From a virus (Duplodnaviria; Caudoviricetes): a stretch of DNA of 64,000 nt. The number at the start of each line of letters is the position of its first letter. The stretch's first letter is position 1. The stretch covers positions 1 through 64,000 of IMG/VR virus record IMGVR_UViG_2862178590_000001; one strand, given 5' to 3'. The notes below the pieces were generated by a model that was not told the origin of the DNA, searched no databases, and saw only the letters and a list, made by a program, of their open reading frames with translations. This document shows positions 10,793 through 13,681 of the stretch, piece after piece. A program made the translations under genes and the position numbers.

Positions 10793-12409
10793 CTACAGCC
10801 AGGGCCAGTTGGCGTCCCGGCCGCGGCTCAGCAGGTCGAGCATCGTGAACAGCTGGTCCGAGAACCCGCCGATCTCGAACCGGTTCGGCTGGCTCGTGTC
10901 GATCGACGACTTGCCGTACCCCGTCGTGTTGATCCCGAACATCGGCACGTGCGCCGGGACCGACTCCGACACTGACAGGCCTCGGTAGCCCGTCGCCCCC
11001 CAGACGGAGCCACGGCCGCCGTGCCCCGGATATGCGAACGCCTGCATGTCCGACACGATGACCACCCGGTCATGGCCCCGGTACGTCGACCGCAGTGCGG
11101 CGACCGTCTCCGTGCCGTGGCCCACCTCGCCGACCCGGGCACAGAACGCCTCGGTCTGCCGAAGCACGCTGCCACCCTTGACCAGCTCGTGCCGGAACAC
11201 TCCGTTCGCGTAGCCGACCAGGTCCACGTCGCAGCCGCGGCCGGCGAGCGCCACCGCGAACAGGGCACCGACGTCGACGTGCCGGATCTGGCTCTTCGCC
11301 GACACTGTGCCGGTCATGGACGCCGAGGTGTCCACGAGGACCAGGGTGCGGCCCGGCAGCGAGGGAATGTTCGCCGTCGACGCGAGCAGCGCCTGCTCCA
11401 GGGCGTGTCCCCAGCGCAACGAGGGGGCTGCGCGGTAAGCAGACAGGAATCGGTAGGGGAACTGCCGCGAGCGGCGCACCTCTTCCGGGTCCGCGAGCCG
11501 GGCCGCAACCAGCGCGGCCACGTCGTCCGGCACGCCAGCCTCGTCGAAGTTCCGCAGATTTCGGGTCAGCGCCATCAGGCCCAAGTGCGGGATGACCGCG
11601 GACCAGGCCGCAGCGTCCATCGGGCCGAGGCTCGACAGCTGCTCCCACGTCATGCCCGCCCGGCCGAGCCGCTCGGGGTCCTCCAGGAACCAGGCGCGCC
11701 GCTCCGCGTCGGGCATGGCCATTGCGGCCCGGTAGGCGGACAGGACAGGCAGCCGGTCGGTGACCCGTATGGTGTCGCGCTTCCACCGCCGGTCGGCGAG
11801 GTAGTCGAACAGGTCGGCCTGCCAGGGTCCTGCCGGTTCCGGCTTAGCGAGCGCGACGACGTCGGCCATGCGCCACTGCGAGGCGCCGCCGTCGTACTTG
11901 AGGGCGGCCCGCTCCTTGTACAGGCGCTGGACGGCGTCGGCGACACCGCGCTGGACGCCGCCGGGCAGGGTCTTCTTGCCGGTGCGGGCCTTCCAGTAGG
12001 CGATGAACTCGGCGGGCTCGTCGGCGCGGAGCATCGCGTCGGCGACCATTTTGCGGACGGAGATCGTCGGTTCGCGGTCCGTGCCTGCCTTGCGGGCGAT
12101 AGCGGACTCGGCGGCCATGACGATCGACGCCGAGCGCATGTTCATCGTCCCGCGCAGGTAGGGCACGAACTGGGCGACCCAGTCCGGGTCCTGGCGGGTC
12201 GCGGCGTGCACGAGTGCCCGGAACCGGTGGTCGCGGTCGGCGGCGCTCTCGTAGAACGTGTCCTCGCCGACCATGTTGACGACGGCGAACAGGAACAGGT
12301 CCGACTTGGCGTCGCGAGTGAAAGCGGCGCCGCCTTCGAAGGTGGTGGTGGTCCCGGTTGTGGTCACGGGGGACGTCGCTGTGCGCGGCGCGGAAGTGAA
12401 CTTGCCCAT
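10793..12409 (-). CDS. rsr: Ro60/TROVE RNA-binding protein (Rsr) with vWA domain
   Basis: N-terminal FEGG..F.RD.K..LF, MRS, ALTRNLRNF, SRQFPYRFLSAY, vWA VLVDTSASM, SDMQ, GFSD. Confidence 0.93.
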   Translation of the reverse strand: MGKFTSAPRTATSPVTTTGTTTTFEGGAAFTRDAKSDLFLFAVVNMVGEDTFYESAADRDHRFRALVHAATRQDPDWVAQFVPYLRGTMNMRSASIVMAAESAIARKAGTDREPTISVRKMVADAMLRADEPAEFIAYWKARTGKKTLPGGVQRGVADAVQRLYKERAALKYDGGASQWRMADVVALAKPEPAGPWQADLFDYLADRRWKRDTIRVTDRLPVLSAYRAAMAMPDAERRAWFLEDPERLGRAGMTWEQLSSLGPMDAAAWSAVIPHLGLMALTRNLRNFDEAGVPDDVAALVAARLADPEEVRRSRQFPYRFLSAYRAAPSLRWGHALEQALLASTANIPSLPGRTLVLVDTSASMTGTVSAKSQIRHVDVGALFAVALAGRGCDVDLVGYANGVFRHELVKGGSVLRQTEAFCARVGEVGHGTETVAALRSTYRGHDRVVIVSDMQAFAYPGHGGRGSVWGATGYRGLSVSESVPAHVPMFGINTTGYGKSSIDTSQPNRFEIGGFSDQLFTMLDLLSRGRDANWPWL

Positions 12410-12457
12410 CGGTCGCTCCAGATACGGGAGGGTTCCGGGCCGACGGACAGACTGCTG

Positions 12458-12587
12458 GGCGCCGCGAGTACCAATCGTGCAGGGGTGCGCCCCCGACGGG
12501 CGCTACATGGTCCAGACCGCGAGGCGGACCGTGCAGGAATCGAACCTGTACTCATGAAGTAGCCCTGCAACATCGCTTCGCGACGCC
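12458..12587 (-). ncRNA. Y RNA-like gene A (divergent YrlA type)
   Basis: 5' GGCGUCGCGAAGCG pairs with 3' GGUACUCGCGGCGCC; T-arm CAGG-UUCGAUU-CCUG, then acceptor-like GGUCCG/UGGACC, then UA-GCGC..GCGC D-like arm. Confidence 0.75.
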
Positions 12588-12646
12588 TTTGCAGTTGTCG
12601 GCCCGGCCGCGAGGCGACCGGAACGAGGATTCAACTGGACACGGGA

Positions 12647-12787
12647 GGCGGGCGAGTACCAGACGCACGAGCTACATAGCGCTCTACCAGCTGAGCTACC
12701 GGCCCCATGGAGGGGGCGCGGGCAGGACTCGAACCTGCGACCTCTCGTTCCTCAAACGAAGTAGGCCCGCACTGCGCTTCGCCAGCC
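12647..12787 (-). ncRNA. Y RNA-like gene B (YrlA type, circularly permuted tRNA mimic)
   Basis: T-arm GCAGG-UUCGAGU-CCUGC precedes an acceptor hairpin closed by CUCCAU and a canonical D-arm UAGCUCAGCUGGUAGAGC; ends GCGAAG / GGUACUCGC pair. Confidence 0.88.
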
Positions 12788-12815
12788 ACCCGTATCCAGT
12801 TGTCTCCCCGAAGGG

Positions 12816-12887
12816 TGCTGCGAGTACCAAGCGCCCGAGGACTGTGTCCGTTGGAAGGGAAGTAACCCCGGGCTGCGCTTCGCGGCA
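12816..12887 (-). ncRNA. Y RNA-like gene C (minimal, no tRNA-like domain)
   Basis: Same GCGAAGCGC / GCGCUUGGUACUCGC terminal helix, with pyrimidine loop UUACUUCCCUUCC. Confidence 0.7.
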
Positions 12888-12962
12888 ACGCCAGCCTACA
12901 GCCGTCCACTGACAACCTGTTGGGATTATCCGACCGTGCCGTGGCGGGCGGCTTGCATGACG

Positions 12963-12987
12963 AAAGCCCCCTCCCGGAGGAGGGGGC
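12963..12987 (-). terminator. Intrinsic terminator at the end of the lysis operon
   Basis: GCCCCCUCC-UCCG-GGAGGGGGC-UUU. Confidence 0.75.
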
Positions 12988-13003
12988 AGTTCGTAGCTTC
13001 GGC

Positions 13004-13096: not shown

Positions 13097-13648
13097 TCAG
13101 GCCGTGCTCCTCGCTCCGGCTGCGGCTGCGGCTTGCAGCATGTGGGTGTGGATCGCATCGACGCGGGCTCGTGCTTCCGCAGCGACCAGCGGATCCCTCA
13201 GCACCGTGAGCTGGTTGTCCTGGAGGGTTTCCCCGGAGCGGGACCAGTTCGTGGATCCGGTGACGACGTCGAGGCCGTCGACGATGAGCAGCTTCATGTG
13301 CATGATCGCCCCGTGTTCGGAGCGGCCGACCGCCACACTGTTCGCGGGGAACGCCGACTTCGCCAGCAGCTCCCGCTCGTGCACGCCGCCGGCCTGCGAC
13401 GAGTCGAGGGTGACCTGGACGAAGACGTGCTCGTCGTCGAGTTTCTCGTGCAGTGCGGCGGCGAGTTCGTCGTCATCGAAGCCGTACATGGCGCAGACCA
13501 GGCTCGACGTGGCCGACTTGATGATCTCAAGAAGTACGTCGTGGACGGCATCCACGGGTGAGTAGAAGGTGCGGGCGAACGCCGGGTAGCCGGGCGGGAA
13601 TCCGCCGGTCTTGTGTCCGTCCAGGACGGCCAGGTCAGCGAGAGCCAC
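13097..13648 (-). CDS. Phospholipase D-like (single HKD) protein
   Basis: HMKLLIVDG...GSTNWS = HxKxxxxD...GSxN. Confidence 0.9.
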
Positions 13649-13681
13649 AGGGGCCTCCGGGAGAGAGCGGACAGGTGCGGG

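Follow-up and report, generated by a model that had tools for sequence, protein, structure and literature searches.

The question raised by this locus is whether a Ro60 gene in viral DNA and the three repeat-bearing sequences that precede it form a complete protein-RNA system. The DNA analysed is a stretch of 64,000 nucleotides (nt), positions 1 to 64,000 of the IMG/VR record IMGVR_UViG_2862178590_000001, which is referred to here as the window and corresponds to C11:590521-654520 of an 8.58-Mb genome in 77 contigs (G+C 68.7%). The gene in question, rsr, encodes the Ro60 protein Rsr and follows three structured RNA units named U1, U2 and U3 (units C, B and A, respectively, of the initial annotation of this DNA). 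Taken together, the results make it very probable that these elements constitute a self-contained module of Rsr and its Y RNAs, an accessory cassette of a temperate Streptomyces-type phage, and that the ribonucleoprotein (RNP) of this module would work as in its homologues. Homology, synteny, covariation and the flanking phage genes all sustain the core of the initial annotation, which had proposed an rsr gene in a prophage, preceded by three distinct Y-RNA-like genes, namely two tRNA mimics and a minimal one.

Concerning the protein, Rsr matched the Pfam TROVE family (PF05731) with 57.6 bits (E 1.7e-15, cut-off 23), and its residues 18-532 matched Ro60 of the Thermus phage phiLo (PDB 9KOP/9L5Y) over nearly the full length (E 1.3e-25), with residues 18-205 and 252-532 as the aligned blocks. 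Both matches bear out the assignment of a Ro60 gene to this locus. In the phmmer alignment, the VDTSAS sequence of Rsr falls opposite VDVSGS of 9KOP, that is, the DxSxS motif of metal ion-dependent adhesion site type of the C-terminal vWA domain, and no match to a Pfam vWA family was listed for Rsr at E <= 1e-3. By homology, a ring-shaped fold with the Y RNA on its outer surface is to be expected for Rsr. The 8.58-Mb genome holds a single copy of rsr, and 220 relatives of Rsr were found in species genomes and 44 in IMG/VR viral contigs.

The three RNA units lie on the minus strand, 55-475 nt upstream of rsr, the criterion for Y RNAs being a position on the same strand within ~4 kb of rsr. Their ends were set by pattern search, and, as the initial annotation had described, they share a 5' GCGAAGCG, an internal YUACUUC and a 3' UGGUACUCGC (all read on the minus strand). 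Over the whole 8.58-Mb genome, GCGAAGCG-N(20-140)-TGGTACUCGC was matched just three times, always at this locus, and the end-motif pair GCGAAGCG...TGGTACTCGC is likewise confined to U1, U2 and U3 genome-wide; neither occurred in the reversed control. In each unit the closing helix consists of GCGA:UCGC, a small asymmetric internal loop and a GC-rich stem, and YUACUUC is placed directly after the 5' strand of the stem. The loop sets A on the 5' strand against AC on the 3' strand and includes a weak G-U pair, a position that is unpaired in 94 of 146 relatives. The helix between the unit ends was thus rightly predicted in the initial annotation, and its GGUAC bulge has to be redrawn as this small loop. 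This stem-and-internal-loop module, which bears the CGAAG motif, is of the known Ro60-binding type, U2 (GGCGAAG) being a full match to the published GNCGAAG motif.

Comparative evidence was drawn from 80 actinobacterial rsr loci of species-representative genomes and from viral contigs; fetched loci and contigs are labelled with L-numbers, L094-L098 being viral contigs. In the eight closest loci all three units were syntenic and alignable. A covariance model of the units, the check that the initial annotation had proposed, was built from 12 U2/U3 sequences (model R1) and used in place of a strict GNCGAAG/GGTAC regular expression, which missed units in distant loci. R1 gave 149 matches in 81 sources (alignment A6), nearly all of them co-oriented with rsr and no more than ~700 nt upstream of it. 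At E <= 1e-3, matches were present in 65 fetched loci and the window, with one unit in 21 of these sources, two in 27, three in 16 and four in 2. In the 64-kb window, R1 found no match besides the three units.

On the R1 alignment, 91.9% of the cells of modelled pairs were paired, versus 72% in shuffles and ~40% with slid partners, and compensatory changes occurred in 27 of the 30 modelled pairs, counts that are inflated by related sequences and by the fitting of the alignment to the model. The terminal helix (helix 1), for which the initial annotation had named a lack of covariation as the finding that would speak against it, showed compensatory changes in 6/7 pairs and 97.4% of cells paired. 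The UACUUC element (129/149 units) is conserved to a similar degree as the T loop (130/149) and is kept also in minimal units without a tRNA-like domain. The 5' Ro-binding motif is lineage-dependent, being CGAAG in the lineage of the window and mostly CGGUG in more distant relatives. In one metagenome-assembled genome (L015:887-1064) the middle unit carries ACACGCG instead of CGAAGCG with its tRNA-like domain retained, and this unit may have lost Ro binding.

Units were detected by R1 in IMG/VR viral contigs as well. Isolated actinophages also carry such units, since Satis, VanLee and Alone3 present at least two R1 matches each beside a Ro-like gene. Furthermore, tRNA genes annotated next to the Ro-like genes of VanLee, Alone3 and Frankenweenie, labelled in that order tRNA-Arg(tct), tRNA-Ser(gct) and tRNA-Pro, overlap R1 matches (Table 1). 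These annotated tRNAs are probably the tRNA-like domains of Y RNAs and not tRNAs.

Regarding the individual units, U2 gave the highest score with R1 (132.6 bits) and is read as YrlA from its arms. Their order (V, T, acceptor-like, UA, D) is that of a permuted tRNA, and each arm covaries or is invariant; compared with a tRNA, U2 is open at the anticodon, and the anticodon arm gives way to the Ro-binding stem. Positions 24-84 of the Rfam YrlA model (RF02553), which comprise the T arm, the acceptor-like stem and the D arm, align with U2 at 34.4 bits (E 1.3e-5), and its terminal stems do not align, the seed model misfitting actinobacterial terminal stems. The helices of U2 and U3 reach ~20-30 bp past the limits given in the initial annotation. 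Fold significance of these extended forms was evaluated as minimum free energy (MFE) against 200 shuffles. Extended U2 reached an MFE of -96.5 kcal/mol (z -5.5; 0/200 shuffles as good), whereas U2 without its basal extension folded no better than shuffles. In RNAalifold, 24 of the 50 predicted pairs of extended U2 showed compensatory changes across 14 loci, among them pairs of the acceptor-like stem and of the basal extension; in the latter, GG/CC is changed to UC/GA and GU/AC in L004 and L003. This extension is likely a processing helix of the precursor. ARAGORN called a tRNA-Ser(act) at 12712-12796 (minus strand), which was rejected as a false positive stitched from the Ro-binding stem, V arm and T arm of U2.

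U3 is a reduced form. It keeps a canonical T arm (CAGG-UUCGAUU-CCUG), its D-arm position is taken by a GC hairpin, and a 5-bp mini-hairpin from UACUU stands where the long V arm is missing. Hence U3 is not a full YrlA, having the T arm and an acceptor-like hairpin only. The initial annotation had assigned T arm, acceptor stem and D arm to both tRNA-like units; all three were found in U2, and U3 lacks the D arm. From its position and T arm, U3 is read as a YrlB-type RNA, and the reduced form of ~111 nt was also found in L003 and L004. Its R1 score is 41.1 bits (E 1.5e-8). The basal helix of U3 consists of 10 bp, 4 bp and 6 bp separated by internal loops, and the extended unit has an MFE of -104.4 kcal/mol (z -4.5; 0/200 shuffles as good). 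Compensatory changes were seen in 17/48 pairs over 8 loci, basal pairs included, and in 16/31 pairs over 18 loci (RNAalifold).

U1, in turn, is read as an extra, minimal Y RNA. It scored 48.5 bits with R1 (E 1.3e-10), its loop is pyrimidine-rich, and neither the folds nor the alignment of U1-type units revealed tRNA-like arms, in agreement with the initial annotation, which had described none in unit C. In that alignment (21 orthologous or similar units), 8/15 pairs carried compensatory changes (RNAalifold). Small conserved elements are also present between the units, namely a hairpin CCC-UUCG-GGG in the U1-U2 spacer (12805-12816, minus strand), a hairpin GGUCGC-CUC-GCGGCC before U3 (12605-12619, minus strand), and the word GACAACUG, with which the extended stems of U2 and of U3 both begin. 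The spacer hairpins and the repeated GACAACUG may be processing signals.

Table 1. Coordinates of the features of the Ro60 cassette in the window and of annotated phage tRNA genes that overlap R1 matches
Feature	Position	Strand	Remarks
Terminator-like GC hairpin followed by UUUCGU	12962..12990	-	Between PLD-like gene and array; -29.3 kcal/mol, z -5.2
Candidate -10 box TAGGCT (TAnnnT type)	12893..12898	-	
U1, minimal Y RNA, 64 nt	12820..12883	-	Ro-binding stem, 8-bp upper stem, ~25-nt loop starting UUACUUCCCUUCC
U2 with ~20-bp basal extension	12632..12802	-	Extension CAACUGGAUACGGGUGGCUG:CCGCCUCCCGUGUCCAGUUG
U2, YrlA-type Y RNA	12652..12782	-	
U2 V arm	12744-12760	-	
U2 T arm	12722-12738	-	Loop UUCGAGU
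U2 acceptor-like stem	12699-12721	-	8 bp, loop-closed; UA follows
U2 D arm	12681-12696	-	GG in loop
U3 with extended basal helix and adjoining small hairpin	12432..12624	-	Small hairpin at 12605-12619
U3, proximal Y RNA, YrlB-like by position	12464..12581	-	Ro-binding stem, T arm, acceptor-like hairpin
rsr ribosome-binding site GGAG	12416-12419	-	
rsr, Ro60/Rsr protein, 538 aa	10793..12409	-	TROVE (HEAT-repeat ring) and vWA
Terminator-like GC hairpin just past rsr stop codon	10740..10790	-	Between convergent genes; -39.1 kcal/mol, z -3.2
tRNA-Arg(tct), Gordonia phage VanLee	L085:4366-4437		R1 70.7 bits, full length
tRNA-Ser(gct), Streptomyces phage Alone3	L086:3855-3928		R1 31.1 bits
tRNA-Pro, 91 nt, Streptomyces phage Frankenweenie	L087:4279-4369		Partial R1 match

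As for the borders of the cassette, a TAnnnT hexamer stands at the position of the candidate -10 box in 7/8 aligned loci, and transcription from TAGGCT would start on the first paired base of U1. The initial annotation had described the cassette as bounded by terminators. Strong GC hairpins do stand on both sides, but their U tracts are poor and a simple terminator scan made no call at either border.

The surroundings place the cassette in phage DNA. Upstream, on the same strand and in this order, lie the genes for large terminase, portal, major capsid, tape measure and endolysin, followed by a PLD-like nuclease gene; downstream follow a DNA invertase, Ku, a DUF6233 protein and a phage-type regulator. 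Replication-initiation, ParB-like and exonuclease genes were found beyond the right end of the window, and ordinary metabolic genes begin ~3-10 kb to its left. With phage genes on both sides and metabolic genes to the left, the cassette therefore lies inside a large prophage, near its left end, in agreement with the prophage-borne location first proposed. No direct repeats of the att type of at least 17 bp were found between the two prophage flanks.

Nucleotide homology to other cassettes runs from 12886-12920 to the rsr stop codon (10793-10799), the exception being L095, where it continues to 10672. This block of ~2.1 kb, which begins shortly before U1 and closes at the rsr stop codon, has 76-79% nucleotide identity across chromosomal and (pro)phage loci and always spans the array and rsr together. 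The closest chromosomal copies (L004, L006 and L007) sit among aldo-keto reductase, LacI, pectate lyase, MFS, permease and fucosidase genes, and in the 80 genome loci the flanking genes of the window do not travel with the cassette, except for one small open reading frame in L002. Among viral contigs, L094-L096 (80-82% protein identity) present the same short, long and long array as the window, and in L096 and L097 the block lies, as here, after an endolysin gene; genes of the lysis module recur near the cassette in some viral contigs only. The portal protein of the window was not found in L094-L097, L098 giving only a very weak match (24% identity), so the cassette is common to phages without closely related portals. 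Chromosomal rsr genes of the same genus are only ~50% identical to rsr of the window. Given these sharp borders, the unrelated flanks and the low same-genus identity, the block behaves as a discrete unit exchanged between chromosomes and phages.

Several observations weigh against a Y RNA module. Apart from the inflation of the covariation counts mentioned above, the 5' motif of U1 and U3 is CGCGAAG, which conserves the CGAAG core with the first G replaced, so that the full published motif is present only in U2. None of the units reaches the gathering score of the Rfam YrlA model (69), the best being the 34.4 bits of the U2 core, so the YrlA search suggested in the initial annotation gave a partial, below-threshold match, and no Rfam family was found in the whole window at gathering thresholds. 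A scan for the sigma-70 consensus found no promoter at the cassette. Finally, no terminator separates U3 from rsr, and part of the array could act in cis.

This last point leads to the alternative that survives best, in which the three structures would chiefly form a 5' leader that acts in cis on the rsr mRNA, for instance as Rsr-binding sites for autoregulation or mRNA stabilisation. The array abuts rsr, the basal helix of U3 ends ~23 nt before the ATG start codon, and the homology block never separates the array from the gene, all of which would suit a leader. However, the equivalents in Mycobacterium smegmatis accumulate as discrete, processed RNAs bound to Rsr (PMC4201824), and a mere leader would not need conserved elbow nucleotides (T loop UUCGAGU and the GG of the D loop) or an 8-bp acceptor-like stem. 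A leader role and a role in trans are not mutually exclusive, and a mainly cis-acting array is considered rather improbable.

The initial annotation had suggested that the tRNA-like units could be decoys or sponges for host defence nucleases that target tRNA. U2 does mimic three parts of a tRNA (T arm, D arm and acceptor stem), the cassette is phage-borne, and a T4 Rnl1-family RNA ligase is encoded 8.6 kb away. Nevertheless, none of the three units has an anticodon stem-loop, the Ro-binding stem standing at that place in U2 and U3; therefore, there would be no target for anticodon nucleases. Moreover, related cassettes occur in ordinary chromosomal contexts without phage genes, and a search of five related, cassette-bearing viral contigs did not find the ligase, which leaves decoys as a highly improbable function. 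An origin of the units by decay of tRNA genes, or from what is left of a tRNA integration site, can practically be dismissed. In its favour are the ARAGORN call and the Rfam tRNA scores (25.9 and 23 bits, against a gathering score of 29, which neither reaches). Against it stand the permuted arm order, an acceptor stem closed by a covarying loop, the make-up of the ARAGORN call, in which the Ro-binding stem is combined with the T arm, and the retention of the units with rsr across many genera and phages.

As a module of Rsr and Y RNAs, the cassette could work as follows. A promoter immediately before U1, possibly with the TAnnnT box at 12893-12898, would give a single precursor that comprises the array and rsr. 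A nuclease specific for double strands, such as RNase III, would then excise the Y RNAs, with the long basal helices of U2 and U3 as the probable cleavage sites, and U2 could also be cut by RNase P. Each RNA would bind through the shared stem to the outer face of the Rsr ring, and the variable heads would gate the ring or tether host factors, PNPase being the documented one. In the resident or induced state of the prophage, this would shift which structured RNAs are broken down and which are protected. That multiple Y RNAs serve as interchangeable adaptors, each for another effector, is a standing hypothesis (Chen et al. 2014, PMC4201824), and such a role is plausible for the three RNAs analysed here. 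A bolder proposal, which is speculative and on balance unlikely, is that the 2.1-kb block (promoter, three Y RNA classes and rsr) is a horizontally exchanged plug-in RNP module of temperate and lytic actinophages that redirects host RNA-decay or tRNA-handling enzymes, with each head recruiting a different host factor and the basal helices serving as RNase III release sites. If true, the cassette would be a phage counter-defence or host-takeover device and not a stress-response system.

The biology itself is not new. What this locus adds is a third, minimal class of Y RNA, the covarying basal extensions of U2 and U3, and the sharp borders together with the evidence of exchange between chromosomes and phages. 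It also exposes an annotation gap, in which the Rfam gathering threshold misses these RNAs, and parts of them are labelled as tRNAs by tRNA finders and in deposited phage records. Furthermore, it is a compact example of Ro60 and Y RNAs from a temperate phage, in a genus amenable to genetics, with three distinct partner RNAs and clear borders, and hence a practical system for exploring the roles of different Y RNAs and the carriage of Ro60 by phages.

Some neighbouring genes deserve mention. The PLD-family nuclease-like gene (13097-13681, minus strand), directly upstream of the array past the strong hairpin, matches PLDc_2 with weak similarity to NucT and to DrmC of DISARM, and is not kept beside the cassette elsewhere. 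Between the cassette and the phage regulator (7072-9429 of the window) lie the DUF6233, Ku (PF02735; phrog_4873) and small serine DNA invertase (phrog_125) genes; a Ku protein encoded by a temperate phage of Streptomyces points to end protection or the use of non-homologous end joining. A possible RNA-repair trio is located ~8.6-12 kb from rsr, at 933-2162 of the window (minus strand) and L138:17686-19988 (G000:C11:588206-590508, just left of the window). It comprises the T4 Rnl1-family RNA ligase (PF09511; phrog_562, E 3.6e-54), a protein that combines a P-loop kinase (AAA_33) with NUDIX, and an 'Oxygenase-NA' protein (PF09859). The trio may belong to the prophage or to the host.

Regarding known systems, the link to an RNA ligase recalls the rsr-yrlBA-rtcBA locus of Salmonella Typhimurium (Chen 2013/2014; Hughes 2020, PMC7790460). 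There, the Y RNAs are no more than 2 kb from rsr and share an operon with RtcB and RtcA that is controlled by RtcR and sigma-54 (PMC7790460), whereas the locus in the window has neither RtcB nor RtcR, and its Rnl1-family ligase, 8.6 kb off, is not conserved with the cassette. The Rfam YrlA family (RF02553) resembles the core of U2 (T arm, acceptor-like stem and D arm) and not its terminal stems; since these remain unaligned and the score stays below 69, standard Rfam annotation misses all three units.

The solved structure most similar to Rsr is that of phiLo Ro60. In vitro, this protein binds two upstream Yrl RNAs through a CGAA motif and assembles with host PNPase into ternary complexes, and the question of why phages carry Ro60 is left to work with infection models (Hu et al. 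2025, NAR 53:gkaf470, PMC12135203). The two loci share a phage-encoded Ro60, tandem Y-like RNAs directly upstream and the CGAA motif, which is needed for binding in phiLo. phiLo differs in having two RNAs, described as hairpins, and a Thermus host.

The other close relative is the rsr locus of M. smegmatis, where YrlA, a tRNA mimic, and YrlB, which has a T arm and lies between YrlA and rsr, are encoded upstream of rsr (Chen et al. 2014, RNA 20:1715, PMC4201824); both are processed from one precursor into discrete RNAs that co-precipitate with Rsr (PMC4201824). Both loci are actinobacterial and place the Y RNAs upstream of rsr on the same strand, with a distal tRNA mimic whose acceptor-like stem has ~7-8 bp and a proximal RNA that keeps the T arm. 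They also share a CGAA-type motif on the 5' side of the terminal helix and, past the stem, an ACUUC element, seen in the probe sequences of PMC4201824. The window differs in its third, minimal unit U1, which comes first, in its prophage location and in the long basal extensions of U2 and U3. On the strength of homology and gene order, the locus belongs to the described protein-RNA system represented by YrlA-YrlB-rsr of M. smegmatis and Yrl1-Yrl2-Ro60 of phiLo.

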